A DNA stretch of 34,298 nt from Candidatus Jordarchaeum madagascarense. GTDB taxonomy: Archaea > Asgardarchaeota > Jordiarchaeia > Jordiarchaeales > Jordiarchaeaceae. The notes beneath the pieces were generated by a model. That model saw nothing but the letters and a program-made list of their open reading frames with translations, was not told the origin of the DNA and did no database searches. Within the stretch, counting starts at the first letter, position 1, and the number at the start of each line of letters is the position of its first letter. Both the position numbers and the translations under genes were made by a program. This document shows, one piece after another, positions 3,304 to 23,101 of the stretch. Where the stretch lies: positions 1-34,298 of the forward strand of contig DXJA01000471.1 of assembly GCA_019056875.1 (NCBI GenBank), given 5' to 3'.

Positions 3304-4272
3304 TCATAGAGTTGTTTGTACCAACTGTGAATCTTTATAAGCCCTTACCAGTCTTCTTATTCCCCTATCTATTCTTTCGGGCTTCATTCTGAAATCTTCT
3401 AATAATTTTCTTAGAGAACCAGTATTAGGAGCATTGAATAATGCCTGGGGATCAACAACATCGGGATTGAGAAAAATCTCTCGAACACCATCAAATTCAG
3501 ACGGATTCAATCCCAACTCAGAAAGTACGCCCACAATGTTACCCTGTTTTTTAACCAGCTTTAAAGCCTTTTTTGCACCTACTCCCTTCACTCCAGAGTT
3601 AAAATCAGTTCCCACAAGAACCGCCAAATCCACAAGTTGCTCATAAGTAATCCCATTCAGTTTCAGAACATCCTCTAAGTTGGTACACTGAATATTGTCC
3701 TCGTTAAACTTCAGACTCCTTAGGATAGATTTGGCCCCAAAAAGCAGAGCATCATAATCCTGAGTGAGAACATGGTCAGCCTTGTTTATCCGAGTCATAT
3801 AAGCTGCCTGTGCCTCAGCTTCTCCAGGCGATTTTATCCAAGGTATCCCCATATATGTTAAAAGCCTCTGGGCTTCGTTTATGATGGTGTCGTAGAGTAT
3901 TTCATGGGATAAGGATATTGTTCTCGCAATATGGTAGTCCTTATTCTCTCTCGCTTTTCGGAGATGATCATATTCCTTCACTAAAGATTCGACCAGATGC
4001 TCCCTTCTCTTCTTGAGTCTGGGATGCGACCCGTCAAACACGTATATTGGCTTGATGCCGCGTTCCAAAAAGTTAATGGTCCTGTAGAGTACGCCATAGA
4101 TGTGGGAGACCACCCTTCCTTCATGGTTGATGAGGGGGAGACTCTGTCTTTTAATCTTTGATAAAAACTGTAACAGCATATTTGAAGCGTCCACTGCAAT
4201 CTTGGTGTTTTCTAACTCTTTTAGGGGAATGGTTTGGAAATTAACAATAGACCCTAACTTTACACCCATCAC
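3304..4272 (-). CDS. fen1: flap endonuclease 1 (FEN1/XPG family)
   Basis: Archaeal FEN1 blocks are present: MGVKLGSIV, KIAVDASNMLLQFLS, SHIYGVLYRTINFLERGIKPIYVFDG, SPGEAEAQAAYM, QDYDALLFGA and VGTDFN. Confidence 0.92.
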   Translation of the reverse strand: MMGVKLGSIVNFQTIPLKELENTKIAVDASNMLLQFLSKIKRQSLPLINHEGRVVSHIYGVLYRTINFLERGIKPIYVFDGSHPRLKKRREHLVESLVKEYDHLRKARENKDYHIARTISLSHEILYDTIINEAQRLLTYMGIPWIKSPGEAEAQAAYMTRINKADHVLTQDYDALLFGAKSILRSLKFNEDNIQCTNLEDVLKLNGITYEQLVDLAVLVGTDFNSGVKGVGAKKALKLVKKQGNIVGVLSELGLNPSEFDGVREIFLNPDVVDPQALFNAPNTGSLRKLLEDFRMKPERIDRGIRRLVRAYKDSQLVQTTL

Positions 4273-4342: not shown

Positions 4343-5689
4343 TCAACTAGGAACTTCCTCCTCACGGGGTAGCTGGTCCTGATCTTTTTTCATCGAGCAG
4401 TTAATAGGTAGAAGTTCGGATAATTCTGATGAATTGTACTTTTCCGAGTATTTTCTTCTCCTTATCAACTCGTATAAGCATTCACGGCTTTTCTCGGTGT
4501 TCACCTGTTTTATTATCTTCGTTACGTTTTTTCCTGTTCCAATGATGAAAATTGAAGCATCCCAAAGTCCGCTTGTCTGAGCGTCTATCATTCTCTGGCA
4601 CTTTAGTCTCGACTCTGTTAAGGACCTCTCTATTCCCGGTTGCAGAATTGGACTTCCCTCCCGGGTTAAGGATAACATGGTTATCAGTGCAGCTGGATCG
4701 TTTTTCTTGAATTTATTGGATGCTAAGCTCTCGATTTTATGCTTAAGCTCTTTTTCAGCTTTTTTAAATTCGTTTTCAACTTTCAGAATTGGCTGTAATA
4801 GTAGCACGTACCCTACACTCGTTTCTCCATTATCTTCACCATTCCGCACCCTTTCTGATACCAATTTTGCCTCTGAGTTAAGACCCAATTCATTAATATC
4901 AAGACTGTCCGGATAATTTTTATCTAGTTTCTGTATATTGTTGCCATCCGGTGCCAACAGTGGAGAATAGATGCAGCGCTCAATCTCCAGCTCATCGCTT
5001 ATCAATCGCGTATCATAACCGTCTTGCTCAAGAATTTCTCTGAGAGTGCTCATCTTCTCTTTCGTTTGCCTAACAGCCTCGCCGAAATCTCTGGAAACCT
5101 CCCAAACCGAAACCAATGTACAAAGATCATTACCCTGTCTATAAGCTTCAAAGCTTAGATTAACCCGCGCTTTCCAAGCAGATAACAACAAGGAAGCCCC
5201 AGTTCCATCACCCCTAACCTCGGCAAATTGCAAAACCTGAAAACCTCTCAAGCCAGACCTGAAGACTATGCAATCATCCAGAATTGTGTCCGGCACTACA
5301 GAATCGGGGAATTCAAACCAGAGCTTCGAAATCAAAGGCATAGTTCCGTGTCCTCTTCTTACTAAAATAAAAACTGTGACCACAGAAGCTTCAATGATTA
5401 TGCTGAACACCGGGTGAATCCCATAATACGATCCCATTCCTATTAAGGCGTAGCCTATATTGCAGATTCCTAAACCCACTACCACTTGACTTGATCTACT
5501 GAATCGTCGGTTAAAGATAAACCTGGCCAAAGGATAAAGCACCAGATATACCGCTAAAATGTAGAGAAGACCGATGGGGTTACCGTTGAAACAAGCGTTC
5601 ACTCCGCTCTGTATTAGTCTGAATGCGAAGGAAATTCCTAAGGCTACCGCGAATATTATAGCTCCATAGTATGCAAGTTTAAGTATCAT
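4343..5689 (-). CDS. polytopic membrane protein with a large cytoplasmic domain (unknown function)
   Basis: The N-terminal ~115 aa form about four hydrophobic helices, followed by ~330 aa of soluble sequence. The ATG at 5689 has GGAGG 9 nt upstream and overlaps the stop of the RadB-like gene (5679-5681). The longest ORF starts at TTG 5698. Confidence 0.6.
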   Translation of the reverse strand: MILKLAYYGAIIFAVALGISFAFRLIQSGVNACFNGNPIGLLYILAVYLVLYPLARFIFNRRFSRSSQVVVGLGICNIGYALIGMGSYYGIHPVFSIIIEASVVTVFILVRRGHGTMPLISKLWFEFPDSVVPDTILDDCIVFRSGLRGFQVLQFAEVRGDGTGASLLLSAWKARVNLSFEAYRQGNDLCTLVSVWEVSRDFGEAVRQTKEKMSTLREILEQDGYDTRLISDELEIERCIYSPLLAPDGNNIQKLDKNYPDSLDINELGLNSEAKLVSERVRNGEDNGETSVGYVLLLQPILKVENEFKKAEKELKHKIESLASNKFKKNDPAALITMLSLTREGSPILQPGIERSLTESRLKCQRMIDAQTSGLWDASIFIIGTGKNVTKIIKQVNTEKSRECLYELIRRRKYSEKYNSSELSELLPINCSMKKDQDQLPREEEVPS

Positions 5690-6443
5690 TTTCTTCAACC
5701 TCCAAATTTGTTTTCAGAATTTCAGAATCAACATAACTTATTCCCCCATTTGTGATCTGGTAGAAAATTCTGCCCTTCATATCCTGATAATGGCCTATAA
5801 TTTCAGCTTTCCCGACCGATTTTAAATGGGTAGTTGAAAGACGCAGAGTTACATGGGAGAATTTGTTTAACCCCCATCCGGTTGAGGGAATGATTTGGTT
5901 TTGGTCCTCGTCATCTACCTTGGAAACTGCCTGGTTCAGGATAAGTACTGCTATGTCTCTCCTTCTCCGGCATAATCCCAGTATTTCAGGCAGTTGCTTC
6001 TCCACGACGTCTCGGTATCGGGAAAATTGAGTTTCGAGTGAAAGATCCTTCCGGTATTGGGAAGCAATCGTGTCCACAACTATGAGTCTAGTTCTGTTGG
6101 AGACATAAGCATCCAAAACGCTGATTATCTCTGTTTGCTCATCCAAACTCCGGGGAACAATCAGGGTTAATCTCTCAACCGAATTATCGTCTGGGAAAAT
6201 TTGAGAGAACCGTTTAAAAGAGAACCTGTTGTCGCAGTCGATGTAGAGAGTTTGAAAGCCTTCCTTTGATAGATGGCCCGCTGCCTGCATAGCAAGCGTG
6301 GTCTTACCCGTAGCCGCCTCTCCATACACATGGCTTATTATTCCTGCGGGTATGCCCCCACCAATTAAATCGTCTATTGGACTGTGTGTTCTAATCATCA
6401 TCAGTCCATTACTTCTAAAGGTAAGTGAACTCAACACCACCAC
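5679..6443 (-). CDS. radB: RadB-like RecA-superfamily ATPase
   Basis: PIDDLIGGGIPAGIISHVYGEAATGKTTLAMQAA (Walker A), LYIDCDNRFSF and RLIVVDTIAS (Walker B) match the short archaeal RadB/KaiC-like architecture, which lacks an HhH domain. Alternative start at ATG 6401. Confidence 0.7.
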   Translation of the reverse strand: MVVLSSLTFRSNGLMMIRTHSPIDDLIGGGIPAGIISHVYGEAATGKTTLAMQAAGHLSKEGFQTLYIDCDNRFSFKRFSQIFPDDNSVERLTLIVPRSLDEQTEIISVLDAYVSNRTRLIVVDTIASQYRKDLSLETQFSRYRDVVEKQLPEILGLCRRRRDIAVLILNQAVSKVDDEDQNQIIPSTGWGLNKFSHVTLRLSTTHLKSVGKAEIIGHYQDMKGRIFYQITNGGISYVDSEILKTNLEVEENDT

Positions 6444-9059: not shown

Positions 9060-10916
9060 CTATTCATTTAATAAACCGAAATAATCTTCAATTGAGCCCG
9101 TTGGTTTTAGCTGGTTCAGCGGCTTCTCACCAGTCTGGTCTATAATGAGTTTCTCTAGCTGCTTCGGAGACTCATAGTCAATTTTGCTGCTTATCCCTCC
9201 GTCGCGTGAAACAATGATCTGAGCCTTACCATTAACAGCACGTTCATAAGTTCCAATGGGCACACCGGGATATTTCTGAACCAGTTCTTCAACAACGCTC
9301 ATCACTTCCGTGCTCTGAGTAATTATCAGAAAAGCAGGATAATCCACTAATCCCTTCCTAGAATCAATAAGATTTTTCAATAGGCCCTTTATATTCTCCT
9401 CAACACACATTACCTCCACAACAGAGTCACAACTTATTATATCGGACTCAGTTGAAACTGTGCTAATAGATTCCTTTAACCCAGTTTTAGAAGCAACTTT
9501 CTCTCTACTCTTTTTGGCGGCTTTGCTCTTTGAGGGCTTCTTTACATTTGAAGTCTTCACCGTTCGCTCAAGGGGTATGATCTTCGGATCTTTCCCGTTC
9601 AATGTAGGTAACTCCCTTTGGATTTCCGGAGCACTTTTCTTAGTAGATTTGTCCTCAAATGTGGCAGTTGCTATCACTGAAGACCGTAGGGTGGCGAGCA
9701 GCTCTTGAGCATACTCGTTTAATCCTGCCAGCTCTGCCTCAGTAATTTTCTTAGAATTTATTGTTCGGTCATAGAATTGCTTAAACCGGTTGTAATCCAC
9801 TCCGGTCTTTTCAAAAACAAGCTCCCCAACTTTGAGAATATCACCAAACACTTGGTTTCCTGTCAATTTCACGTAGGCGTCCTTTAAGGCGCAAATCACC
9901 GCGTTATTCAAGTGAATGGCGGATTCTTCCCAATCTCCTTCTGCATATGTTTTTTGGGCTATATTCAATAGATCATCTACTTGCTGGGTATGGGATACGG
10001 TATTTTTTTTACTAGTAGTAATTAGCGGTTCAACGGGTTTTTTAATCCGAGTTTCTGTTGAGGGTTCTTCGCGGATAAAGGGTTGAGACGTGGATATTGA
10101 GTCTATTTGCTCGACGCCAAACTTTTTTGATATTCCTTCTGGTAGTTTTTGAAATGCGGCTAGCTCCTCCCTCAACAGTTTCTTGAATCTGGCAACTCCT
10201 GACTCGTGTATAATTATTGATCCGATAAGGGTTACTACTAAAAGAATGGAATCTACAACCATCAATGATTGGAAGAAGGATCCTGTGAGATTGAAAAATA
10301 GGAATGGAACGAGTGTAGCAATAAGTAAAATGGTGATGATTAACCCGCTTCTTGCACGAGAGTAGGCTTTGTTTAAGACTTCCCCCTTATTAGGTTTAAA
10401 AATTCTTTTAGCCTTTTTCAACACCACTTTCTTTCTGCTTTCCAGCACAGAGGATAAATTGGATATGGGAACAATCTCAACCGAATCACGCTTGTCATCA
10501 CCCTCACCGCGAGATCCACTTACCAAGAATTTATCGGCTACTATCATGGCTTGTTTGCCCATATAGTAGGGTGTTTTCACACCGAAGAGGTTTCTAAGCT
10601 CTAAGCCCCTGATGAGAGAATTCGGAATGTTAACCAACCGATATAGCAAAACATGTGATAATTTGGATACCGTTCCTCTGTCCTCTCTTATTTTTTCCAC
10701 GGCGGTAGTCTTGTATATAATGAGGTCAAGAGCATTGTACCTCTTTCCTATATGGATTTTACAAGCCACACTCACCTGGCCCTTCTCATAAGACATGATG
10801 CGATAGCCGTTATCCGAAAAAATACTCGAAGCTTTCTCGCCACGGGATGCTTCCCTTTCTATCTGCCTTGTCGTTTCATGTTCCCTCCTTAATTTACATC
10901 CTTTTAGTGGTTTCAC
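9060..10916 (-). CDS. hypothetical membrane protein (two central TM helices)
   Basis: 618-aa ORF. Its GTG start overlaps the stop of the upstream HTH gene (GTGA). The hydrophobic pair is GLIITILLIATLVPFLFFNL / LMVVDSILLVVTLIGSIIIH. I recognise no catalytic motif. Confidence 0.55.
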   Translation of the reverse strand: MKPLKGCKLRREHETTRQIEREASRGEKASSIFSDNGYRIMSYEKGQVSVACKIHIGKRYNALDLIIYKTTAVEKIREDRGTVSKLSHVLLYRLVNIPNSLIRGLELRNLFGVKTPYYMGKQAMIVADKFLVSGSRGEGDDKRDSVEIVPISNLSSVLESRKKVVLKKAKRIFKPNKGEVLNKAYSRARSGLIITILLIATLVPFLFFNLTGSFFQSLMVVDSILLVVTLIGSIIIHESGVARFKKLLREELAAFQKLPEGISKKFGVEQIDSISTSQPFIREEPSTETRIKKPVEPLITTSKKNTVSHTQQVDDLLNIAQKTYAEGDWEESAIHLNNAVICALKDAYVKLTGNQVFGDILKVGELVFEKTGVDYNRFKQFYDRTINSKKITEAELAGLNEYAQELLATLRSSVIATATFEDKSTKKSAPEIQRELPTLNGKDPKIIPLERTVKTSNVKKPSKSKAAKKSREKVASKTGLKESISTVSTESDIISCDSVVEVMCVEENIKGLLKNLIDSRKGLVDYPAFLIITQSTEVMSVVEELVQKYPGVPIGTYERAVNGKAQIIVSRDGGISSKIDYESPKQLEKLIIDQTGEKPLNQLKPTGSIEDYFGLLNE

Positions 10917-12115: not shown

Positions 12116-12400
12116 ATGCCCGAAGTCTATTGCAAGGTTTTAAAAAGAAAGGTCGATGGAGGATACTGCGCCTTCATATGCGAGCTTCCAGAAACCGAAA
12201 AAAGTATCATTTACAACCCCTTCAGGGGTATCTACGCGGATTGCAGCTTCAATAAGGAACTCTCAGAATCAGATTCGGTGAGCAAAAAAATTACAACCGT
12301 TGTAAAAAAATCTGAGCCGGAAAACGACGAGGAACTTAGCCTGAAAATTCCCCAATCAGTAATCCTCAAATTAATAAAAGTATTGGAGGGGGACCAATAA
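12116..12400 (+). CDS. small Cys-containing protein coupled to radA
   Basis: 94 aa counting from ATG 12116 (MPEVYCKVLKRKVDGGYCAFICELPE...DCSF). Its stop overlaps the radA start (TAATG at 12398-12402). The radA SD (GGAGGGGG, 12385-12392) lies inside its 3' end. Confidence 0.5.
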   Translation: MPEVYCKVLKRKVDGGYCAFICELPETEKSIIYNPFRGIYADCSFNKELSESDSVSKKITTVVKKSEPENDEELSLKIPQSVILKLIKVLEGDQ

Positions 12401-13467
12401 TGGACTTGACTAACGTTAAGGGTGTGGGACCGGAAAAATCGCGGAAACTCATGAGCGCCGGCTACGGTACTGTGGAGAGCATCGCCTTCTCCTCACCCCG
12501 GGACATCTCCATGGATACCGGCATACCAGAGGATACAGTCAGAGCAATCATAACAGCAGCCAAAATGATTGTTCGCTCCAAGGAAAGTACGAAGGGAGGA
12601 AAACTAGTAGAAATTCTCTCAGGTAAAGACGCCAAGAAAATCCTAGGAAGCATGGATCACATAACTACTGGTCTTAAAGGACTCGACCAAATACTGGGTG
12701 GAGGCATAGAAACCTGTGCGGTTTCCGAGTTTTATGGACCCGCCAAGGCCGGCAAGACCCAGATATGCCACCAGCTCTGCGTCACTGTCCAGCTTCCCAA
12801 GGAGGCAGGAGGCCTCGAAGCCCCCGCCCTATACATCGATACCGAGAGGACTATGAAATACGAACATATCAAAAGCGTAGCGGAGAGATTTGGTTTGGAT
12901 CCAGACATGGCAAGTGACAACGTTTTTTACGCCTACGCCATGAACAGTGAGGCCCTTTACGAAACAGTGCACAAGAGTCTGGATGAGGTGGTTCAAAACC
13001 GGGGAATCAAACTCGTGGTGGTGGACTGCCTAACCGGACACTTCAGAGCGGAATATTGTGGTAGAGAGAGTTTGCCCACAAGACAGCAAAAACTAAACCG
13101 AATAATCCATGATCTTCTGAGAATCGCGGTCTCTCAGGATCTTGCGGTTGTGGTGACCAACCAAGTTCACTCTCAGCCCGACCTGTATGGCAAGAGTGAG
13201 AATCCCATTGGGGGACACACTGTGGCTCATGGGGTCACCTTCAGGCTAGGATTGAGCACAAGAAAACACAATATGAGGATTGTAACCGTGGTGGATGCTC
13301 CAGCATTACCCCCAGACGAGGCTTACTTTGCGATAACCACACGAGGCCTAATCGATATAACTGCCAAGGATCTGAGTTCCAAGGCTCCCATAGGATTCTC
13401 CGAAGCCGAAGAAGAGGAGGAGAAAGAAGTCAAGAAAATGGAGGAAGCGGAAACAATCATAGAATAG
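12400..13467 (+). CDS. radA: DNA repair and recombination protein RadA
   Basis: N-terminal HhH domain (VKGVGPEKSRKLMSAGYGTVESIA), Walker A GPAKAGKTQ, ALYIDTE, Walker B KLVVVDCL, and NQVHSQPD...NPIGGHTVAH. Confidence 0.93.
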   Translation: MDLTNVKGVGPEKSRKLMSAGYGTVESIAFSSPRDISMDTGIPEDTVRAIITAAKMIVRSKESTKGGKLVEILSGKDAKKILGSMDHITTGLKGLDQILGGGIETCAVSEFYGPAKAGKTQICHQLCVTVQLPKEAGGLEAPALYIDTERTMKYEHIKSVAERFGLDPDMASDNVFYAYAMNSEALYETVHKSLDEVVQNRGIKLVVVDCLTGHFRAEYCGRESLPTRQQKLNRIIHDLLRIAVSQDLAVVVTNQVHSQPDLYGKSENPIGGHTVAHGVTFRLGLSTRKHNMRIVTVVDAPALPPDEAYFAITTRGLIDITAKDLSSKAPIGFSEAEEEEEKEVKKMEEAETIIE

Positions 13468-13488: not shown

Positions 13489-16092
13489 GTGTGGAAACGG
13501 GGATTAAGTCTGGCGCTGGTTTCTTTCATATTGGTCTTGATGATTTCCGGTCTTTTTACAAGCGTTAGTCTATCCCCCGTTTTTACAGTTCAATCCAGTA
13601 ACACGGTTCAATCCGGCTATATTCCAAAATCGGTGGTGAATGTTGCTTACCTCACCAATCAATCTAGTGTTCAAAAATGGGAGAAATACTTCACAAGCAA
13701 TTCTAGTCAAGCCAATCTGCAAAGTGTAATTGGTTTTCTCGCGGGTCTCGGCACTCGGCACACATCTAGACCAGAATGTAACACCTCAGCAGATTACATC
13801 TTCACCACTCTTCAATCCTATGGTTATTCCCCCTCAAGAGACTATTTCTCGGTTATTTGGCAGGGAGTTCCATACACTACCCAGAACATATACTGTGTCA
13901 AGCCTTCCGCTTCACCGGATGTAATTCTTTTTGCCTGTCACTACGATTCGATAAGAGTTACAAGAATAGGAGAAACAATCATCGGAATACAGAACACTAA
14001 CTGTCCCGGCGCGGTGGACGATGCGGCTGGCGTGGCGGCGCTTTTAGAGGTCGCTAGGCTGCTGGCAGACGTGAGTCTTGACAAGACCTTGGTTTTCGCC
14101 TTTTTGAGCGGAGAGGAGGGAAACAGCACATCGGAACACTGGTTCGGCTCAGAGCAACTGATCAATCAGGGGTACAGCCTGTTCACCTCCCAATTCTCAA
14201 ACATAAAAAGAGTAATATACTTAGACACTCTTGGAGAGCCTCCATACGGGGAGCCACACGGGAACATAACGATTTACTCAAACATCCTAGTGTTTCCGAA
14301 TACAGTTCCTCTTATCGGTGCCGCATCTGACCTAGGTATCAATGTTGTGTCAGAAATTAATCCTAGAGTGTCCTCAAGTTTAGAGGCTCAAAAACAGTTC
14401 TGTTCTGAGTGGAGACTACAATTAGCTATACCCACGGTGACCATCTCTCAAGAGAACTGGGCTTTAGCTACGAGCGACAGACTCACATCAGTTGACACCG
14501 CTTCCATAGTTGATTACACATTCGTTGAAAACGTCACCAAAATCGTCACAGCCTCAATAATAAGAGAGTTCTACAATATCCCACCAAGCTCCACCAGCTA
14601 CAAGACTGAGTGGAGTGAAATCACAAATCAATACTCAAATAAAATAAATCTCTTTGAGCGAGATTATTCCGAATACCTAGCCAGCCCGAATTCCGACGTG
14701 ATAATAATCGGACCCGAGCTGAACTTTTCAAACCCAGAACTCCAGCAACTGGTTGCAATAAATAAGCCCATAATCTGCACCGGGGAGAACGGGGCGGAAT
14801 TACTCAATAGTTTAGGAGCCGGAGTAACCAGCGTATCTACCGACACTGATTACGTTTCATTAACAAGAGCGGATTTATTCTTTCATCCGGTATGGGAAAA
14901 CGTGGAGCAAAACATCACCGTTGCAATCAATCAGGGTGACTCAACCCTGCTCATCGGCGGTAGCAACCTTTTCTCGTTCTTAGAATATGAAGGAGACTGC
15001 TGGCTGGGATTTTATTACGGTCACCCATCACTCAGGTATGTGTTTTATTTTGGGAGAGATGATCCGGCTAATCTCAGCGGTCAAGCAAAACACATTCTAA
15101 GCAACCTGATTTCTTGGGGTTCCAAGCAGGAGGAACACGTATTGCAGCTCCAACCCCAAAATATTGTGGCTGGTGAAAGGGTCAACCTCATCATGGCCAT
15201 AAGGAGTGCTCTAAGCTGGGAGGTTGTTGAGGCTGACACCGTGAACCTAACAGTAACACAAAACGGTGAGCAAGTATATCACGGTTCTCTTTCCACGTCG
15301 AGTGGCTACTTTAGCGTCGATCTCATACTAAACTTGGGTGATTGCATCTTTACGGCTTCCACTGGCTCTATTTCCACAACAAGAAAACTAGTTGTAGTGG
15401 CACCGTTTAGGGTTCAAATCTATTCTCCCTTTACCTCGGTTCAGAATCAATACTTTCCGTTGGCTCTAAGAATAGATAGCCTCTCATCCTCGGAGCAAAA
15501 GCTCAATATCTTTATCCCCGAACTTCAGGTCTTTACCCCGGTTAATCTTCCACCAAATGAGTCTGTGATGCTCTACATTCCCGCAGTTTATAACCCCGCA
15601 TCTCCCTATGAACAGGGTGCACACCTATTCACGGTTTTGGTTCAAGGCCTTTATCCCTTCGTTTCAGCTCTCCCAGTGCTGATTTCTCTCTCAGCTAGAA
15701 ACCTGATTCTGGGGTACCTTTTGCCCCTTATCGCTCTACTGGCTGTTGGTATACTTGTCTACAGGAGGATATACTTGGTTAAACCTCCAAGGTCTATTCA
15801 GTTTCGGGAAGCCAAGAGGGTAGAGAGGAGAAAGTATTTTGATTTGTTTGTTTTGGAAGACACTCAAGAAATTGAAGCGTTTAAAGATGAACTTAAAGAA
15901 ATGGGATTCGAAGAAAAGGTGGAAAACCGCTTCTATAATCCCGAGGCAATAGTTGAGATTCAAATCAAAGACAAAGAAACACACGTTAGAATTTTTTCGT
16001 CCCAAAGTGAGTTTTATAGAATGATAAATGGACTGAAACTATCCCAAGTGGAATTTGAGTTTGAAGGAGGTCTTGAGAATAATGTGGGGTGA
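13489..16092 (+). CDS. membrane-anchored surface protein with an M28-family peptidase domain
   Basis: N-terminal signal/anchor (LALVSFILVLMISGLF). M28 zinc-ligand blocks ACHYDS, GAVDDAAGVAALLEVARLL and FAFLSGEEGN. Many NxS/T sequons. C-terminal TM helix (LILGYLLPLIALLAVGILVY) followed by a cytoplasmic tail of about 110 aa. Confidence 0.8.
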   Translation: MWKRGLSLALVSFILVLMISGLFTSVSLSPVFTVQSSNTVQSGYIPKSVVNVAYLTNQSSVQKWEKYFTSNSSQANLQSVIGFLAGLGTRHTSRPECNTSADYIFTTLQSYGYSPSRDYFSVIWQGVPYTTQNIYCVKPSASPDVILFACHYDSIRVTRIGETIIGIQNTNCPGAVDDAAGVAALLEVARLLADVSLDKTLVFAFLSGEEGNSTSEHWFGSEQLINQGYSLFTSQFSNIKRVIYLDTLGEPPYGEPHGNITIYSNILVFPNTVPLIGAASDLGINVVSEINPRVSSSLEAQKQFCSEWRLQLAIPTVTISQENWALATSDRLTSVDTASIVDYTFVENVTKIVTASIIREFYNIPPSSTSYKTEWSEITNQYSNKINLFERDYSEYLASPNSDVIIIGPELNFSNPELQQLVAINKPIICTGENGAELLNSLGAGVTSVSTDTDYVSLTRADLFFHPVWENVEQNITVAINQGDSTLLIGGSNLFSFLEYEGDCWLGFYYGHPSLRYVFYFGRDDPANLSGQAKHILSNLISWGSKQEEHVLQLQPQNIVAGERVNLIMAIRSALSWEVVEADTVNLTVTQNGEQVYHGSLSTSSGYFSVDLILNLGDCIFTASTGSISTTRKLVVVAPFRVQIYSPFTSVQNQYFPLALRIDSLSSSEQKLNIFIPELQVFTPVNLPPNESVMLYIPAVYNPASPYEQGAHLFTVLVQGLYPFVSALPVLISLSARNLILGYLLPLIALLAVGILVYRRIYLVKPPRSIQFREAKRVERRKYFDLFVLEDTQEIEAFKDELKEMGFEEKVENRFYNPEAIVEIQIKDKETHVRIFSSQSEFYRMINGLKLSQVEFEFEGGLENNVG

Positions 16093-16531
16093 AGAACTGT
16101 TAAATTGGATAATGGGCTTTCTACTATTCGACGGCATCATAATTGTTATCACTTTCCTTCTCGTGTTTTTGGGCCTAAAAGTTGCCATGGTGCTTCTGGG
16201 AGCTGAGGAAACCAAAACGGTACCCTTGGTTCCATCCAAGACTCAATGGTCAAAAAGAGCTAATCCCTACGTTCAGATAGCAGAAGCACTGGAAGAGGGG
16301 GATCAAGCCGCGTTATTATGGCTGATGAATCAAAACACCCTGAGAAACAAGATTTCCAGAACTCTGAACGCTGTTGCAGTGGACGCGTTTTTGGGCATCG
16401 CTGCCCTGTTATCCGTTATAAGTGTGTATATCAAGATTAGGGCTCTGCCGGTTCAGGACTGGATTGTGATTCTCATGGCTATAGCGGCTATAATTCTTGT
16501 GGTTATTTCATATTGGAGGGTGAAAGATTGA
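16082..16531 (+). CDS. small polytopic membrane protein
   Basis: The ATG at 16082 has AAGGAGG (16064-16070) 11 nt upstream and overlaps the M28 gene stop (ATGtggggTGA). There are three to four hydrophobic helices. The longest ORF begins at TTG 16055. Confidence 0.55.
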   Translation: MWGEELLNWIMGFLLFDGIIIVITFLLVFLGLKVAMVLLGAEETKTVPLVPSKTQWSKRANPYVQIAEALEEGDQAALLWLMNQNTLRNKISRTLNAVAVDAFLGIAALLSVISVYIKIRALPVQDWIVILMAIAAIILVVISYWRVKD

Positions 16532-16655
16532 CAATAACCAGAATCCGAATACTTAACAGATCTAAAAATCATCAAATTGGAAACATCCCAATTGGAAGGG
16601 AGTCCACAATGATTCCCAGATTGAATGTTCAAGAATTGAGGAGGTTTAGATAGAA

Positions 16656-17579
16656 GTGCCGACTGAAAAATTAAAAGCCAAAGATGTGGAGATGGAAGCG
16701 GCCAGAGAAAAGTTCAAAGCCAAAAGAGTAGAGGTTGAAACAAAAATTGGGGAAGATGAGGAAAGAAAGGAACTCATTGAATCTTACGTTGAGTGGGGTG
16801 ATCGAAACGCCAAACTCTTCAGCCTCTTGAACGTAGCCAAGTTCATGGTCGTAGCCACCGTCCTTTTGCTATCCTACATTGTATCATCAATATACTTTCC
16901 ATACCCCTACTGGGTAATTCTAACCATTGTATGCACCTACATCTCAATGTGCGCAGTTAACCCAAAGTTTGCATCCCCCATTCTCAAACTGCTAAGCCAT
17001 GGAAAGTGGCCCAACAAAGAAAAATTCTCCCTGGTAGATCCACTACAGGACGTAACCTTCTTCTTCATGGGCGGAGAGGATTCAGTTCTAATAATGCGTG
17101 ACAGCTACAAGCTAGCCGCCTACGCCATGATGAAGGTGGAAGAAATCCCCCTCAGCATAAGAGGCAGCTTCAACTACTTCTTCCGCACACTCTACCTTCA
17201 AAAAGTCCCAGTAATCTACTTCGTGGAAAGCAGCCCGGTTTCTGAGAGAACAGTAAGATTCCTTCCGAACCTAGAGGAAGGCAGTCGTCAATCCATTTCA
17301 AAGAGGGACAAATCGAGGAGAAAAACCTGGCTCTGGGGAGGAGGAGGCGTCTGGACAACCCGCATAGTTCTGGGAACCAAAAAAGAAATAATAGCCCCAG
17401 TACGTCTCGACCACTCAATTGGGAAACTTGTTGAAGAAGTGAAAATGAACGCGTTTTCACTAGCCACAGCATTTGAGAACTCTTATCCTCACTGCAAAAT
17501 CGAACCCTTGGTGGGTGAATCCCTGCTAGATGCTACTAAGGCCATGCTAACCGGTGGTGGAGTGTCCCATTTTTTCTAA
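16656..17579 (+). CDS. membrane protein (two TM helices plus a soluble domain), possible N-terminal half of a split VirB4/HerA-like protein
   Basis: GTG start with GGAGG (16640-16644) 11 nt upstream. Hydrophobic segment FMVVATVLLLSYIVSSIYFPYPYWVILTIVCTYISMCAV. It ends 5 nt before the NTPase ORF. Confidence 0.6.
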   Translation: MPTEKLKAKDVEMEAAREKFKAKRVEVETKIGEDEERKELIESYVEWGDRNAKLFSLLNVAKFMVVATVLLLSYIVSSIYFPYPYWVILTIVCTYISMCAVNPKFASPILKLLSHGKWPNKEKFSLVDPLQDVTFFFMGGEDSVLIMRDSYKLAAYAMMKVEEIPLSIRGSFNYFFRTLYLQKVPVIYFVESSPVSERTVRFLPNLEEGSRQSISKRDKSRRKTWLWGGGGVWTTRIVLGTKKEIIAPVRLDHSIGKLVEEVKMNAFSLATAFENSYPHCKIEPLVGESLLDATKAMLTGGGVSHFF

Positions 17580-17584
17580 CCGGG

Positions 17585-19153
17585 TTGGAGGCGACTCCAA
17601 CCTTCGTAGACCTCGCAACCTTCATGACCAAAGGCTTAACGGTGAAACCAGCCGCCGAGTTCGTCAGCCCCTCTGTGGAGTACGATTTCAAACTGGGTAA
17701 GGTGATCGAAACCGAGGTTTACAAGGAAGACGTGGACGTTGGATTAAAAATCGAACACCTACACCGCGGTATCATGGTGGCTGGGGGAAGCCAAGAGGAA
17801 CGCACCGCTACGAATCTAAGCATAATATTTGAGGCTTCCAGATTTGCGTGGAATTACTTGATAGTAGACACGGGGAAACGGTTCAGAAGAATGGTGAATA
17901 TGAATCCTGAGACAAGGGTGTATCCCAGCAAGAGTATTTGTATAAATCCGCTGGACCCCGAGGATTCGAGCGTTTCCGAATACATTTCCCTCCTACTCAG
18001 ACTATTCCAGGTCCTGTGGAATCTCACCGATAGGCAGAGCATAGATTTGGGTGAGGCTCTAAGGAGCATCTATGAGAACCAGGACAGAGGCAGTGCTCCC
18101 ACTCTGGAGGATTTGAGGAGCGCTTTGATTAATCAGAGTTCGTCAAAGCTGAGGACTGCTCAGGAGAGAAGTGGAATAGAGGGGGTGATACGTAGCTTGA
18201 ACGGTCTGGTGTTATCGGAAGAGTCCCCCACAATAAACGGGCGTTCCACAATGCCCTTCAGAGACCTCCTGACAAACCCCACTATTATAGAGATTTCCCG
18301 AAATGATCAAATGTTCTCAAGCTTCTTCAAAGGAATGATGATAGTGAAGGCCCTAGCAACTGACAAGGGTAGGTATTCAATTTTTCTGGATGATGCGGAG
18401 GATGTTTTCAAAAACATTAAATACGGTAGAAGAACGGAGCAAGTTTACTTCCAGGAATCCCTAACGCGATGGGTGGAAAATCTGAAAAATATGAAAGTGG
18501 GGTTACACATCTCAACCCCTCTACCCCGACTAATCTACAATCCCATCCAGCCAATGATAGAAACCCAAATAGTCCACAAACTCGTTTCAAAAGAAGACAT
18601 CAACATAGTAGGAGAACTCATGGGGCTAGAGGAAAACGCACCGGGAATACACTCACTCAAGAGAGAACGCCTCTACCAAGCCACCTACTTCAAGTACCTC
18701 AAAGAGGACGAAGCGCTATTCCACCGACCAGACCTACCGACAGGATTCCCAATAGCCTTGCATTATCCCACAGTTGTGTACTCAAACACGCCCTCGGACC
18801 AAGAGATAAGAACAAGACTGGAAGAACTTTACCCCCCTCAGAACGTAAATCTCGTAGAAAGTTTACCATCCACGATGCTTGAGAGAGATTTCAAAAACGA
18901 AACGGAGGGCGCCGTAAAAATACTGGAACTACTCCATGAATATCCTCAACTCTCCCTCACAAACATAGTACAAAGCCTAAAAATAGAAGTCGACCCGGAA
19001 AAAATAAGGTATCTCATAGAGAAGCTCAAAGACTTGGAATATTTGAAGGAAACTCTAGAAGTCTGGAAGTCAAAAACCAAACGAGTATACTCTCTAACAC
19101 TGAAAGGGGAACAGGCACTAAAAGAATACACCGAATCTACACAGTTATACTAA
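17585..19153 (+). CDS. HerA/VirB4/FtsK-like NTPase-fold protein with degenerate P-loop and C-terminal winged helix
   Basis: The layout HRGIMVAGGSQEERTATNLSIIFE...NYLIVDTGKRF matches the P-loop-helix-strand pattern of HerA/VirB4-type ATPases, but GSQEERT replaces GSGKS/T. A Walker-B-like YSIFLDDAED lies at 18374-18403. The C-terminus, LSLTNIVQSLKIEVDPEKIRYLIEKLKDLEYLK...YSLTLKG, looks like a wHTH. The start codon is uncertain (TTG 17585). Confidence 0.6.
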   Translation: MEATPTFVDLATFMTKGLTVKPAAEFVSPSVEYDFKLGKVIETEVYKEDVDVGLKIEHLHRGIMVAGGSQEERTATNLSIIFEASRFAWNYLIVDTGKRFRRMVNMNPETRVYPSKSICINPLDPEDSSVSEYISLLLRLFQVLWNLTDRQSIDLGEALRSIYENQDRGSAPTLEDLRSALINQSSSKLRTAQERSGIEGVIRSLNGLVLSEESPTINGRSTMPFRDLLTNPTIIEISRNDQMFSSFFKGMMIVKALATDKGRYSIFLDDAEDVFKNIKYGRRTEQVYFQESLTRWVENLKNMKVGLHISTPLPRLIYNPIQPMIETQIVHKLVSKEDINIVGELMGLEENAPGIHSLKRERLYQATYFKYLKEDEALFHRPDLPTGFPIALHYPTVVYSNTPSDQEIRTRLEELYPPQNVNLVESLPSTMLERDFKNETEGAVKILELLHEYPQLSLTNIVQSLKIEVDPEKIRYLIEKLKDLEYLKETLEVWKSKTKRVYSLTLKGEQALKEYTESTQLY

Positions 19154-19354: not shown

Positions 19355-20560
19355 ATGCCTGACTCCGTTGAGGGGTGGATTGCCAAGGGCGATTATGCCC
19401 TATACCGAAAACGAAGGTATGAGGAATCCTTAGAGTGCTACGATAAAGCCCTGAAGATAGAGCCGGAGTGCGTGGTGGCTTGGGTTAGTAAGGGTGTGGC
19501 ACTAAGCAGTTTAGAACGGCTTAAGGAGGCTGTACAGTGCTACGACAAAGCCCTGAAGATAGAGTCAGAGTATGTTGATGCTTGGCTCAACAAGTTCTTG
19601 GACTTACAAAAACTGGGCAGAACCAAGGAAGCGGTAAACTGCTTCGATGAAGCGATGCAGCTAATGAGAGAGGGAAGGGGACTCCGAATCAACAAACGCA
19701 TAACCCTAATCAAAAATGACTCCCCGGATTACCACCTGATCTCCCAATGGCTACTGGAATTAAGACCGGGCAACAAGAACACGGTGGGGGACAGGTGCCT
19801 AGATCTGCTCAAAAACGAAAAGTTCGAAGAAGCCTTGGAGTGCTATAACAAGCGGGTAGAGTTGGAACCGGAAAACGAGGAGCTTTGGAACAATCGGGGC
19901 GTGGCTCTGCACACTTTGAGAAAAACTGAGCAGGCTCTAGAATCCTACAATAGGGCGCTGTGCATCAAACCGGACTATGAGGAAGCCCTGTTCAATAAGG
20001 GCCTAGCCCTCCTTGAGGGACTGTGGCTTGAGGAAGCAATAGAATGTTTTAACAAGGTTTTGTATGACAACCCGGATGATGTGCAGGCTCTTTATCAGAA
20101 AGGCTTTGCTCTGTGCAATTTGTGTAGGAGGGAGGAAGCCCTGCAGTGCTACGATAAAGCGCTGCAGATAAAACCGAGTGATGGTTATGTTTGGGTTATG
20201 AGGGGGGTGGTTCTTTTAAATTTGGGGCGAGGCGAAGAAGCATTAGAGTGCTATGATTGGGTGTTGCAGACGAATCCAAAGAATGTGTACGCTTTGAACG
20301 GTAAGGGTGTGGCTCTTTACCTCTCAGGGCGGAGCGAGGAGGCTTTGGAGTTCTACGATAAAGCCCTGAAGATAGAGACAAATATGGCGGCGCTCTGGCT
20401 CAACAAAAGTATTGCTCTTCGAAGCTTGGGAAGAATGGAGGAGACTGAGAGGTGTGAAAGTGAGGCCCATAGGCGGGACCCTGACCATGATTTTTCACAG
20501 GAATATTTCCAAAAAGTCTACAACCTCGCCCGGAAAGAGAAAGGGGAGACGGTGAAATAA
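19355..20560 (+). CDS. tetratricopeptide (TPR) repeat protein
   Basis: It contains many 34-aa repeats of the type EEALECYDKALKIEPExxxAWxxKGxAL. A GGTGA SD lies 6 nt upstream of the ATG. Confidence 0.9.
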   Translation: MPDSVEGWIAKGDYALYRKRRYEESLECYDKALKIEPECVVAWVSKGVALSSLERLKEAVQCYDKALKIESEYVDAWLNKFLDLQKLGRTKEAVNCFDEAMQLMREGRGLRINKRITLIKNDSPDYHLISQWLLELRPGNKNTVGDRCLDLLKNEKFEEALECYNKRVELEPENEELWNNRGVALHTLRKTEQALESYNRALCIKPDYEEALFNKGLALLEGLWLEEAIECFNKVLYDNPDDVQALYQKGFALCNLCRREEALQCYDKALQIKPSDGYVWVMRGVVLLNLGRGEEALECYDWVLQTNPKNVYALNGKGVALYLSGRSEEALEFYDKALKIETNMAALWLNKSIALRSLGRMEETERCESEAHRRDPDHDFSQEYFQKVYNLARKEKGETVK

Positions 20561-20561
20561 G

Positions 20562-21035
20562 TTGGAAAACAGGGATAAAAAGACGCGGAAACTGATAGAA
20601 GAAGTGAAGAAGGATCTTGAGTCTAGCACCTGCTGCACCCTTGGAGAGAGGGAGGATTACGGGGAAGATTGGCTAAACGTATACCGGCTAGAGGAAAAAA
20701 AATTCTCCGAGCTTTATGTTCCCATAGAGATTTACTTCAACCTTCGGGAAAAGACCATCTCTCTTCGCTTCGAACTTTCCCTCGGCCTACTCGATTTAGG
20801 AAAAAACAATAATATTAAGAAGATAGCAAACTGGCTCCGAGAATACGCCGACTACATAGAAGCAAAGGAAAAGGAAATACTGGAACTAGGATACTACACG
20901 GAGCAAACGGTGATCGATGGCATACACCCCATCTACTTCTTCTACCGCAAAGATTTCCCTCTAGACCAAGTTGGGGAATTAGTCAAGGAAGCGAAAAACC
21001 TCATAGAGAATGTTTGGATCATCGGCGTATTATAG
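20562..21035 (+). CDS. standalone X-domain protein (copy A of the five-member paralog family)
   Basis: The TTG start is 1 nt after the TPR stop, with GGTGA at 20551-20555. It shares the blocks CTL, YVPIEIYF, ISLRFELSLGL, IANWLREYA, ILELGY, IDGIH and YFFYRKD with the four other copies. Confidence 0.75.
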   Translation: MENRDKKTRKLIEEVKKDLESSTCCTLGEREDYGEDWLNVYRLEEKKFSELYVPIEIYFNLREKTISLRFELSLGLLDLGKNNNIKKIANWLREYADYIEAKEKEILELGYYTEQTVIDGIHPIYFFYRKDFPLDQVGELVKEAKNLIENVWIIGVL

Positions 21036-21359: not shown

Positions 21360-21685
21360 CTAAATCAGAATTTTGGAGCCTGATTTACGGTTTAAAGGGT
21401 AGTCACTTCTTATGGTGACTTTTTCAAAAATCCATTCAAGCCTCCCCTCTTCATCAAATTTTGCCATTTTTTCTTTTACTATGACTGAGGGGAATTTATT
21501 TTTTCTCCATTCAGAAACTGTTTGTTCCCAGTATTCTTTGCATTTTTTTATTTCTCTCGGACTAAAACCTTTTTTGCCAACCGGGACTTTGTATGCACAT
21601 TATTATGGCAATTAAGACATAGTACCGCAAGATTCTCTAGTCGATTGTCTGACCGATTTCCATTAATATGATGGATTGAAGAAAG
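21360..21685 (-). pseudogene. HNH endonuclease remnant (N-terminally truncated, frameshifted)
   Basis: Minus-strand translation of 21685-21548 gives LSSIHHINGNRSDNRLENLAVLCLNCHNNVHTKSRLAKK, the HNH core (HH..N....N..LC..CH). An in-frame TGA lies immediately upstream at 21686-21688 and there is no start codon. The frame stops at 21548-21550, but another frame, overlapping around the A6 run (plus-strand T run 21570-21575), stays open to 21360 and reads KKGFSPREIKKCKEYWEQTVSEWRKNKF... Confidence 0.6.
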
Positions 21686-21969
21686 TCAAAGAACTTCTCT
21701 CCTTTCCAGATCAATTTCCTGATGAAATATTTAGATATCTAGATATATCACGTGATAAATTTGCTAGTGAACTTAAGAAGCTGTGGGAAAGGAGTGTAAC
21801 AGAAGTCAAAAATATTGAAGGGATCCAAGGTGGCAACTTGAAGTCGCTTTATGAATATTTCGAGGATTTGATTGAATTGCATAAACAATTGACAACTCTT
21901 AGAAGCAATACAGTCTCACTAAAAGAAAAAATTCAGCAATATGCGAAGATCAAGGAGGCTTTTCCATGA
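21676..21969 (+). CDS. hypothetical small helical protein (first gene of the three-gene cassette)
   Basis: 97-aa ORF with only a TTG start available and no convincing SD. Its 3' end carries the AAGGAGG SD (21952-21958) of the next gene and overlaps it (ATGA at 21966-21969). Its 5' end abuts and overlaps the HNH remnant on the opposite strand. Confidence 0.45.
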   Translation: MKKVKELLSFPDQFPDEIFRYLDISRDKFASELKKLWERSVTEVKNIEGIQGGNLKSLYEYFEDLIELHKQLTTLRSNTVSLKEKIQQYAKIKEAFP

Positions 21970-23099
21970 CAATCGAATTGTTAGGGGCGGTTCAAGAGAA
22001 GACAAAAATGTCAGACGACTTAAAGTATCGATTTGAGTTACTATTAACAAGACTTGAGGAAAGCAGAAAAAAGGGAATGATTATCTCTCTTCCTGAATTC
22101 GAAGCATATGGTTGGAGAAATCTTGGAGAATTCTTAGATAGGTTGGACGATGCAGTAAATACACCACTTATTGAAGAAGCCAGAAGCATTTTGGACAAAA
22201 TCGGAGTATCTCCCCAGACCCTTGACAAATTGAAATCCGTACTTTCGGTGAGAAGGGAAGGGCTGATAACAATTCTGAAGGAAATGAGCAAAGAATTCAA
22301 GAAGATTCAGAACGAAAGACTTCAGAACAGAGCTAGGGAGAATATAACAAAATTCGTGGATGAAGGTAGATGGGATGAATTAGTTGTAAGGGCAAGCAAC
22401 TGGCAGAAACTAGAAGAAGACCTAGGCTCACTGCTGAAAGGGATAACAAAAAACACATACCTATATAATACTGTGTTTGAGAAGGCTCTAGAGGAAGGCC
22501 CTGGAACTGGCATAATTGATAAACTCAAAGAAGTTGAAGTAAAAGCCTCACGTGTTGGCAGCGAAGCTCTGAGAGCGCGTATAAAATTTGAAGTAGCTCA
22601 AAGTCAAGCCAATCCTTTAGGCAGCGTAGAAGATGATCTGAACCAAATCGCGAAGAAGAAAGAGGAACTAAGACAACTTATGGGTGAGGAAGTTAATATT
22701 AACAAACTCATAGAAAGGAATGAACCATTATCAAAGATGATTGATAAGCTAAATGAGGATTATACGCGGGTAAAAGGCCTTTTTGACACGCAGTATCGAA
22801 CAATTGAGAAACTCTTGCAAACACACAACAATCTTACTACTATTCTCAAAAAGATATCAAAGGCTATGCCTCTTGAAATAAGTCTTAAGCGATTAAAAGA
22901 GTTTGGCGATGAACTTGAAGGAGAGATTAAAAAACTAGAGAGCGAGCTTGAGAAAACGCTTACAGCAGATGCGAGGAGATTCATTGAGAACCTGCTTGAA
23001 GGAAAATTACCAGATGGTTGGGATGAAAAGAAGATAGTTAGTACTCTCAAGGAAATTCTCGATAAGAAAATTTCGTTTGAAGTTAAGTTGAGGATGTGA
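21966..23099 (+). CDS. K/E-rich coiled-coil protein
   Basis: 377-aa ORF with AAGGAGG 7 nt upstream of the ATG. Heptad-like, charge-rich sequence runs throughout. There is no Walker A or other catalytic motif. Confidence 0.7.
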   Translation: MTIELLGAVQEKTKMSDDLKYRFELLLTRLEESRKKGMIISLPEFEAYGWRNLGEFLDRLDDAVNTPLIEEARSILDKIGVSPQTLDKLKSVLSVRREGLITILKEMSKEFKKIQNERLQNRARENITKFVDEGRWDELVVRASNWQKLEEDLGSLLKGITKNTYLYNTVFEKALEEGPGTGIIDKLKEVEVKASRVGSEALRARIKFEVAQSQANPLGSVEDDLNQIAKKKEELRQLMGEEVNINKLIERNEPLSKMIDKLNEDYTRVKGLFDTQYRTIEKLLQTHNNLTTILKKISKAMPLEISLKRLKEFGDELEGEIKKLESELEKTLTADARRFIENLLEGKLPDGWDEKKIVSTLKEILDKKISFEVKLRM

Positions 23100-23101
23100 C
23101 T

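Follow-up and report, generated by a model that had tools for sequence, protein, structure and literature searches.

A membrane module conserved across Asgard archaea, built around a predicted FtsK-HerA-like protein with a degenerate P-loop and encoded among recombination genes

What is left for a protein to do when it has the predicted fold of a DNA pump, is probably anchored at the membrane and has lost its nucleotide site, and why would it be encoded among genes of homologous recombination? These questions are raised by positions 13,489 to 19,153 of contig DXJA01000471.1 (assembly GCA_019056875.1) of Candidatus Jordarchaeum madagascarense, a member of the Asgardarchaeota; the stretch of this contig that we analysed, referred to here as the window, is 34,298 nucleotides (nt) long. 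We find that this region is a four-gene membrane module, with components that we call A, B, C and D, that is conserved across Asgard archaea and is embedded in a conserved recombination/repair neighbourhood of genes for RadA, Hel308, RadB-like protein, FEN1 and, in some loci, XPD. The reading that we favour, with a probability of roughly 40%, is that the module is a passive membrane DNA dock or conduit that serves recombination, its four proteins arranged around a nucleotide-free ring of D.

The original prediction, made from the sequence of the window, described a trio of membrane proteins and a split NTPase, with genes of 149, 307 and 522 amino acids (aa), an 11-nt overlap at the head and a 5-nt gap between the last two genes. 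All of these features are present. The open reading frame (ORF) of the upstream M28 membrane protein, which ends with the TGA at 16090–16092, overlaps component B, which begins with the ATG at 16082, by 11 nt; 5 nt separate the stop codon of the 307-aa gene (C) from the TTG of the 522-aa gene (D), and these two genes are in different frames (offset 929 = 3n+2). The predicted genes thus stand, with the correction that the parts are four in number, the tail of the M28 protein being the additional component. Gene D has two possible starts, the ATG at 17624 (509 aa) taken by the gene caller and the TTG at 17585 (window 17585–17626). We favour the TTG because the upstream peptide EATPTFVDLATF is conserved in relatives and matches the linker of fused proteins.

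Word-indexed searches returned 12 relatives each for D and C at 73–88% identity, and the named ones are all from Jordarchaeia/Freyarchaeia. Since these relatives come from independent metagenomes and the gene order is conserved, the genes of the module are real; a lack of synteny elsewhere, which would have told against the original prediction, was looked for, and the order is conserved in related loci. An exhaustive HMMER search with a 13-sequence, Jordarchaeia-only profile of D against 1.84 billion representatives yielded 271 proteins at E ≤1e-3. Every family member that bears a source name is from an Asgard archaeon (Baldrarchaeota, Helarchaeota, Lokiarchaeota or Promethearchaeota), and the annotations given to relatives at the source are ‘hypothetical protein’ or ‘(predicted) transcriptional regulator’. 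Among the loci compared are L001, the complete genome of Ca. Freyarchaeum deiterrae (CP147778); L012, from Baldrarchaeota; L006, L008 and L009, which are Loki-type; L013, from Helarchaeota; L010 and L011, contigs of uncultured archaea; and L014, a Lokiarchaeota variant with a protein of ~1260 aa.

Component C is the N-terminal membrane anchor of D, detached by gene fission. The hydropathy profile of C has a strong segment at aa 52–83 followed by a weaker second one (transmembrane (TM) segments were called throughout by a crude Kyte-Doolittle hydropathy scan), and its layout is a TM hairpin at ~aa 52–105 followed by a cytoplasmic alpha/beta N-domain at aa 131–307; a Pfam scan of the protein gave no match, and a single-sequence PDB search with it found nothing. 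The exhaustive search recovered many fused proteins of 750–980 aa in which the D-like region starts at residue ~280–320. Window C and D align end to end with one of these, the 818-aa homolog P0031: residues 131–307 of C align to residues 101–277 of P0031 (BLASTP E 5e-26), stopping exactly at the last residue of C, and D aligns to residues 282–802 (E 5e-49). In the AlphaFold2 model of P0031, the part that corresponds to C is a TM hairpin (helices 33–58 and 61–85) and then an alpha/beta domain (106–279), with a predicted local distance difference test score (pLDDT) of 88–95 across this N-domain. All 12 relatives of C terminate in ...GG[GA]V[SP]xFF; in alignment A10, the unfused proteins all end after GGG[VI]P/SxFF, and the fused ones go on with ...SFY[LFM][ST]G.E....

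The fission is ancient: Jordarchaeia, Baldrarchaeota and part of the Loki-type lineages have the split genes as a fixed state, and many other Asgard lineages have the fused form. The split genes encode 277 + 533 aa in L012, 281 + 515 aa in one Loki-type contig and 280 + 526 aa, with a 4-nt ATGA overlap, in another. It had been proposed that 307 + 522 aa make up a single split protein, and this proposal is correct, the two halves giving a TM, N-domain, ATPase-like and winged helix-turn-helix (wHTH) protein; the fused versions, whose existence in relatives had been posed as a question, are the proteins of 750–980 aa. It had also been suggested that the two ORFs could be a frameshifted or decaying gene, broken in this assembly. 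Their spacing in different frames and the existence of fused homologs would fit this idea, but it is practically excluded by the same split and C-terminal end in all 12 relatives of C, by the same two-gene arrangement in the complete genome L001 and other contigs, by the splits in Baldr- and Loki-type loci, by a mean column identity of 79–83% in the C and D alignments with no internal stops, and by coverage of positions 17575–17590 without an indel in four independent assemblies from three studies.

Other arrangements of C and D occur as well. In the Loki-type locus L006 (9224–12457), a free C-like protein of 253 aa is encoded beside a fused C-D protein of 818 aa, and the ~1260-aa variants of Lokiarchaeota, as read from the sequence of P0077 (L014:3531–7316), have two C-like units of TM and N-domain ahead of the D part. 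In Helarchaeota (L013:19812–21570, minus strand), genes for A-like (146 aa), B-like (171 aa) and C-like (254 aa) proteins run into FEN1, and a fused C-D protein of 753 aa is encoded ~8 kb away on the opposite strand (L013:10001–12262, plus strand), which suggests two partly separate copies or sub-modules.

Component D is predicted, from profile searches and from the model of its fused homolog, to be a divergent member of the FtsK-HerA superfamily that falls outside every curated family. A single-sequence PDB search with D found nothing, and the hydropathy scan of the 522-aa protein found no TM segment. A family profile (A4, 51 rows, all of them lacking a canonical P-loop) matches structures of HerA best among PDB sequences (8xau, E 7e-11; 8j4u, E 9e-9; 9c1m, 1e-8), with the Walker A region in register, and structures of FtsK are only marginal profile matches (E 0.05–0.2); several of the E-values given in this work were computed in small custom databases. 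The AlphaFold2 model of window D, made with 13 close relatives, has a pLDDT of 45 overall, with the wHTH as the only confidently folded part. The structural argument for C and D comes instead from P0031, which is only 27–29% identical to the window proteins and whose model, built from the 51-row alignment, has a pLDDT of 89.3 and a predicted template modelling score of 0.73. Foldseek matched this model to HerA (4d2i, E 1e-12), to full-length VirB4 of R388, TrwK (8rtd, E 2e-12 over 689 columns), to the C-terminal domain of VirB4 (4ag6, TM-score 0.71, root-mean-square deviation 4.4–4.6 over ~400 columns) and further to the DndH C-domain and TrwB (TM-score 0.59). D is thus closest by sequence to CedD and HerA, and by structure to the VirB4 C-terminal domain and HerA. 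The HerA/VirB4/FtsK-like fold of the original prediction is borne out by these profile and Foldseek matches, and the inactive-looking P-loop and wHTH tail that it also pointed out are both present, the P-loop being degenerate across the family.

To judge from its motifs, D is almost certainly not an ATPase. In a hidden Markov model (HMM) alignment of 162 hits, G62-IMVAGGSQEER-T74 of D is in register with the G-x-[ST]-G-x-G-K-[ST] of distant relatives, and the Gly-Lys of the active relatives is replaced by Glu-Arg; D does not match the canonical Walker A pattern, GxxxxGK[ST]. Residues G67, G68, S69, E72 and R73 are invariant in the 13 Jordarchaeia sequences, and a degenerate motif of the GG[ST]xx[EQ]R type is found in ~117 of the 143 hits in which the region is aligned, with the canonical motif only in more distant ones. 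The Walker B-like IFLDDAE retains its acidic pair in Jordarchaeia (D270 is invariant), and elsewhere in the family the second of the two varies (Q, F, I, S or G). The 13-sequence profile does reach proteins with canonical GxxGxGK[ST]/EEAH motifs, at E ~1e-9, and the ten distant matches of this kind that were scanned by Pfam were all DUF87/HerA_C proteins, the nearest active relatives of D that we found.

The tail of D is predicted to be a wHTH that is MarR/PadR-like at the level of fold and not as family membership. The AlphaFold2 model has a pLDDT of 76–90 over residues 431–520, with an H-H-H-beta-beta topology; the Pfam matches, to HTH_34 and DUF4423_like, are sub-threshold, and family profiles match structures of PadR and MarR with E-values between 1e-4 and 1e-3. 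Apart from these sub-threshold matches in D, Pfam recognises only Rad51/HHH_5 and Peptidase_M28 among the proteins from radA to D.

Component A is a single-pass membrane protein, the Jordarchaeia version of which gained an extracellular region of ~730 aa with an M28-like domain. In Loki-, Baldr- and Hel-type loci, two small genes, A and then B, precede C and D, and the free-standing A of these loci has 128–146 aa, with one N-terminal TM segment and a domain of ~100 aa. The M28 protein of the window consists of an N-terminal signal/TM segment, an M28 peptidase-like domain (62.5 bits against a Pfam gathering cut-off of 21.3, with only profile positions 6–98 of 193 covered), a TM segment at ~aa 734–765 and a cytoplasmic tail; its core as component A is the TM segment with a cytoplasmic domain of ~100 aa. 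The 130-aa A protein of Baldrarchaeota (L012) matches the tails of M28 proteins at phmmer E 3e-9, 4e-9 and 2e-7 (in a set of 137 sequences), with 34% identity over 99 aa. Similarly, the family of M28 tails matches the Loki-type A family by hhalign (E 5e-4), and jackhmmer links the A proteins of L006, L008, L009 and L013. The M28 proteins of L001 and L004 are orthologs with 61–62% identity. The fusion of A to an M28 ectodomain in Jordarchaeia accounts for the M28 gene running into that of the 149-aa protein, and the coupling of the M28 gene to the module, noticed earlier from that overlap, holds good in that its C-terminal TM segment and tail are a component of the module. In the ectodomain (window 13489–15700), the motifs H-x-D, DDxxG and GEE are visible in the sequence.

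Component B is a small three-TM protein, with hydrophobic stretches at ~5–44, 94–122 and 119–149 and a layout of TM segment, hydrophilic loop and two further TM segments; it matches the second gene of other lineages (113–171 aa) in position and topology. Its score against NCBIfam SLATT_2 (21 bits, E 2e-4) is below the 40-bit cut-off.

The module does not stand alone. The radA gene is directly upstream on the same strand, 21 nt before the M28 gene, and is probably co-transcribed with the module; the adjacency of radA and the module is also present in L001 and L004. Across lineages, the most consistently linked neighbour is Hel308. A Hel308-type helicase is found within 10 kb of the module in 9 of 11 loci, and a tenth, L013, has an unclassified DEAD helicase; Hel308 orthologs, 31–75% identical in the loci compared, adjoin the module in L001, L004, L006, L008, L009, L010, L011 and L012. 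Among the module loci, RadA is found in five and FEN1 in six, and FEN1, RadB-like and polytopic membrane protein genes recur near the module in other lineages. The order is radA-A-B-C-D with Hel308 upstream in Jordarchaeia, and RadB-like, TM protein, Hel308, A, B, C, D in Baldrarchaeota (L012), where the genes are co-directional, tightly packed and overlapping. In the Loki-type loci L008 and L009, Hel308 is divergent and 0.8 kb upstream, in L006 it is ~8 kb upstream, and in Loki-type contigs FEN1 is 7–10 kb downstream of the module. L010 and L011 share one packed co-directional array of RadA, two small genes, an XPD-like helicase, two small genes, fused C-D and Hel308, with a 4-nt overlap of C-D and Hel308; it goes on with a protein of ~500 aa that has a central TM region and a gene of ~200 aa, and in L011 continues through genes for a 307-aa membrane protein and a RadB-like protein to FEN1. 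Downstream of D, the flanking genes vary even from one Jordarchaeia genome to the next, and therefore the linkage to recombination genes is specific and not simply general synteny. The coordinates of the features in the window are given in Table 1.

Table 1. Features of the module and of neighbouring genes in the window, with the basis of each assignment
Feature	Position	Strand	Basis
Component A within M28 membrane protein (867 aa)	13489..16092	+	Pfam Peptidase_M28, hydropathy scan
Component A core, aa ~739–843 of M28 protein	15703..16017	+	phmmer, jackhmmer, hhalign
Component B, 149-aa membrane protein	16082..16531	+	Position and topology
Component C, 307 aa, GTG start	16656..17579	+	BLASTP against P0031, alignment A10
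Component D, 522 aa from TTG (509 aa from ATG at 17624)	17585..19153	+	Profiles, structure model
Degenerate Walker A, G62-IMVAGGSQEER-T74 of D	17768..17806	+	HMM alignment
Walker B-like strand, Y264-SIFLDDAE-272 of D	18374..18400	+	Alignments
Predicted C-terminal wHTH of D, aa ~431–520	18875..19144	+	AlphaFold2 model, weak Pfam, family profiles
radA (355 aa)	12400..13467	+	Pfam Rad51 E 6e-72 plus HHH_5
Hel308/Hjm-type Ski2-like helicase, 732 aa	6852..9050	-	Pfam DEAD, Helicase_C, Helicase_dom4_arc
RadB/KaiC-like ATPase	5679..6443	-	Context gene
451-aa polytopic membrane protein	4343..5698	-	Context gene
FEN1	3304..4272	-	Context gene

To which of the systems built around FtsK-HerA proteins does this module come closest? 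FtsK itself begins with a TM domain and ends with a winged-helix gamma domain, and FtsK/SpoIIIE proteins, which belong to the same superfamily as D, thus share an analogous layout of N-terminal TM anchor, ring domain and C-terminal winged helix. D differs from FtsK in its marginal profile similarity, in that no motor activity is expected of it, in its N-domain, and in the presence of the small membrane partners A and B; the Pfam FtsK_SpoIIIE model has no match in window D.

HerA acts with NurA as an end-resection helicase in archaea and is also associated with defence in bacteria. The likeness to HerA lies in the profile matches to solved HerA structures, in the DUF87/HerA_C proteins as nearest active relatives, and in the linkage to recombination genes. 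However, neither window D nor P0031 reaches any Pfam HerA model, NCBIfam helicase_HerA scores only 15 bits in one family member against a cut-off of 970 bits, and D, unlike HerA, has no Walker A motif, is predicted to be anchored in the membrane through C and carries a wHTH tail. No NurA, Mre11 or Rad50 turned up when the module and its larger neighbours were scanned with Pfam, or in the Pfam listings of related loci; several neighbours are without a detectable family, so a divergent partner of the NurA/Mre11/Rad50 type is possible.

VirB4 is like D in that its C-terminal domain is the best rigid-body structural match for the ATPase-like domain of D and in that full-length TrwK aligns with the model of the fused homolog. 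VirB3-VirB4 fusions exist, and their order of small TM hairpin, N-domain and ATPase domain resembles that of C-D. At the level of sequence, hhalign against R388 TrwK puts the Walker A and B regions in register but at E 0.04 only and finds nothing for the N-domain; there is no Pfam CagE_TrbE_VirB match, and one of 51 members has a weak match to TIGR00929 VirB4_CagE (E 0.004). D also differs from VirB4 in its inactive P-loop and wHTH tail, and the module is without VirB2, B6, B8, B9, B10 or B11 partners, lies on the chromosome and is conserved by vertical descent.

Of the named families, CedD comes nearest to D. It is a membrane-bound FtsK-HerA protein that is essential for DNA import feeding recombinational repair in Sulfolobales (PMC11868833, PMC11823120) and has been proposed to have a coupling or gate-keeping role through which DNA is passed on to homologous recombination (PMC11868833, PMC11823120, PMC9905601). 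CedD, like C-D, is a membrane-associated FtsK-HerA protein with a TM region, an N-domain and an ATPase-type C-domain (PMC11868833), and some CedD/CedB orthologs are without the TM part, which parallels the C/D split (PMC11823120). Furthermore, Ced imports DNA for repair, and the module is encoded near RadA and Hel308. Among named families, NCBIfam CedD ranks first for window D (E 7.5e-7, 28 bits) and matches 15 of 51 family members (best E 3e-18), with the match covering the whole ATPase domain (residues 321–693 of P0030 span profile positions 195–525 of 527). However, the relatives of D that were inspected score 23–46 bits against a family cut-off of 600 bits, the Walker A motif is destroyed across the D family, the wHTH of D lies past the end of the CedD model and has no counterpart there, and the model does not match the N-domain of C.

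Alongside CedD and CedB stand TedD and TedB of the Ted systems of Thermoproteales. Ced and Ted systems encode, with the ATPase, a polytopic VirB6/CedA-like channel of 6–7 TM segments and a VirB2/CedA1-like pilin, and even between Ced and Ted the components have no sequence similarity that can be recognised (PMC9905601). Near the module we recognised no CedA/VirB6-like channel, no CedA1 pilin and no Ups pili genes, and Ced and Ted are described in Crenarchaeota by two Ced papers, whereas the named members of the module are all Asgard. Membership in Ced or Ted was rejected on the equivalog score and the active-ATPase motif. Of the resemblance to Ced/Ted-like systems that the original prediction pointed to, the part that stands is therefore CedD as top named family. 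Its conjugative or mobile reading is not upheld, since housekeeping recombination genes surround the module in a conserved part of the chromosome.

In the reading that we favour as the most economical one, C, or the fused N-terminal part, would anchor the D ring at the membrane beside A and B. D would keep the ring-forming fold of a DNA pump without its nucleotide site; the loss of Walker A argues against ATP hydrolysis and thus against D as a motor, and the conserved Glu-Arg that replaces Gly-Lys could, speculatively, fill the phosphate pocket. Using its pore and wHTH, D would bind DNA as a passive ring, dock or gate. The DNA would be held or threaded at the membrane, with Hel308 (and XPD), helicases encoded in the same neighbourhood, supplying translocation or unwinding, and would be handed to RadA for homologous recombination, with the RadB-like protein as a further recombinase partner. 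By analogy, the role of the dock would be comparable to the coupling or gating proposed for CedD in crenarchaeal DNA import.

Several points weigh against this reading. The dead P-loop removes the activity that defines the DNA pumps of this superfamily, and Pfam and NCBIfam recognised neither a VirB6/CedA-like channel of 6–7 TM segments nor a pilin in the module, in which B has ~3 TM segments and A has one. Homology of B across lineages was not detected by sequence (the hhalign probability of Jordarchaeia against Loki-type B is <1%, and jackhmmer makes no link), and the N-domain of C has no relative in profile searches of PDB sequences, in Pfam at E ≤1 or, by hhalign, in residues 1–400 of TrwK. 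The linkage to repair genes is guilt by association, the ~1260-aa variant locus L014 is without the Hel308/RadA context, and no RNA-seq runs containing the locus were found.

A bolder proposal is that the module is an Asgard chromosomal apparatus for DNA uptake or cell-to-cell exchange, distantly akin to Ced, in which D would gate, Hel308/XPD would provide the motor and RadA, RadB and FEN1 would integrate the DNA. We regard this as unlikely, at about half the weight given to the dock or conduit.

Equally doubtful is a membrane-tethered signalling or transcription device, in which the wHTH of D would be a transcription factor held by C, A and B, and an extracellular or membrane signal, for which the M28 ectodomain of A would be the sensor in Jordarchaeia, would change or release D to regulate neighbouring repair genes. 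The MarR/PadR-like wHTH that ends D is in keeping with such a device, as are the source labels ‘predicted transcriptional regulator’, the large ectodomain of A in the window, and the catalytically dead ATPase fold, which suits a scaffold or sensor; moreover, Jordarchaeia, Baldrarchaeota and some Loki-type lineages encode D as a soluble polypeptide of its own, which could leave the membrane. However, D is fused to the TM hairpin in most lineages, where release would need proteolysis, the ectodomain is specific to Jordarchaeia, with A elsewhere only ~130 aa, and a phylum-conserved ring-ATPase fold of ~400 residues is large for a tether.

Somewhat less likely again is an FtsK-like chromosome anchor, whose role would be to tether or position chromosomal DNA, replication forks or intermediates of recombination at the membrane or the site of division, with no transport across the membrane. 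This proposal overlaps with the dock or conduit and differs from it only in whether DNA crosses the membrane. The order of TM hairpin, linker domain, RecA-like ring domain and wHTH in the P0031 model would suit an anchor, and so would the weak profile matches to FtsK structures and the linkage with the replication and recombination genes FEN1, Hel308 and RadA. Nevertheless, the function of FtsK depends on pumping, which D, without an ATPase, would lack; Pfam FtsK_SpoIIIE misses window D, and there are no division genes in the neighbourhood.

Anti-virus defence of the SIR2-HerA, DUF4297-HerA or MADS type, or a mobile or conjugative element such as an archaeal conjugative plasmid, is very improbable: HerA structures from defence complexes are among the best matches of D, the only PADLOC match is a weak one to mad8, a HerA-like MADS component (E 2e-6), and B has its weak SLATT_2-like match, but no effector domain (nuclease, SIR2 or similar) was detected in or beside the module, no integrase and nothing else mobile or defence-like was found when the proteins of the module and the larger neighbouring ones were scanned with Pfam, base composition is unremarkable, the housekeeping chromosomal neighbourhood is the same across several Asgard classes, and the ATPase of D is inactive whereas defence HerA proteins are active.

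Several other genes recur around the module. Beside Hel308 is a protein of 485–618 aa (618 aa in the window) that belongs to no known family (window 9060–10916, minus strand; L010:14522–16033; L011:14543–16000) and that has, in three lineages, a central TM region at ~residues 190–250; BLAST finds no link between the lineages, and jackhmmer connects L010 and L011 alone. The protein is a possible membrane partner of Hel308. Similarly, the RadB/KaiC-like ATPase (207–254 aa) is repeatedly paired with a polytopic membrane protein (307–451 aa, with N-terminal TM segments), in the window at 4343–6443 (minus strand) and at L008:1280–3449, L012:4574–6342 and L011:16664–18317, the second case in this cluster of a membrane protein accompanying a DNA-repair ATPase; jackhmmer joins the polytopic proteins of 451, 446 and 385 aa, and a single-sequence PDB search with the 451-aa protein found nothing. 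A small conserved protein (71–148 aa; 135 aa in the window) also travels with the cluster (window 6415–6822, minus strand; L010:6267–6668; L011:6113–6559; L008:1090–1305); its gene immediately follows radA in L010 and L011, and in the window it is flanked by the RadB-like gene and Hel308.

Downstream of the module, the window has a gene for a 401-aa TPR protein followed after 1 nt by a gene for a 157-aa protein without a family (19355–21035, plus strand); since these two genes are not conserved downstream in L001 or L004, they are probably outside the module. Three overlapping or abutting ORFs (97, 377 and 144 aa; 21676–23530, plus strand) are Lys/Glu/Leu-rich and coiled-coil-looking, the 377-aa one having no Pfam match, and tandem genes encode large HEAT/PBS-lyase-repeat proteins of 794 and 557 aa (24177–26561 and 27351–29024, minus strand); HEAT_2 proteins are found near the module in L001 as well. 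Several lineages also have, at the cluster's edge, genes for large surface-type proteins that carry MG2, Big or prenyltransferase (alpha-2-macroglobulin-like) domains (window 31928–34252, minus strand; L010:16621–22337; L011:22210-; L012:553–4566).

The literature that we searched holds no account of this family or gene cluster in Asgard archaea. The fold class is already known; undescribed in the searchable literature are the family itself, the universal loss of Walker A, the fusion to a wHTH, the A-B-C-D module and its embedding in a recombination cluster. Whatever its function, the module defines a new protein family, now annotated ‘hypothetical’ or ‘transcriptional regulator’, and provides a clean series of gene fission and fusion and a conserved recombination gene cluster to guide annotation. 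If the dock or conduit reading is true, a phylum-wide Asgard complex would tie the cell envelope to eukaryote-like recombination machinery (RadA/Rad51, Hel308/HELQ, XPD and FEN1), and an FtsK-HerA pumping ATPase would have been turned into a nucleotide-free DNA-binding scaffold. It would also make DNA exchange or import for recombination in Asgard archaea a testable question, one that bears on the origin of sex and meiosis; if exchange itself were the function, there would be a dedicated machine for recombination by exchange in the archaeal lineage ancestral to eukaryotes.

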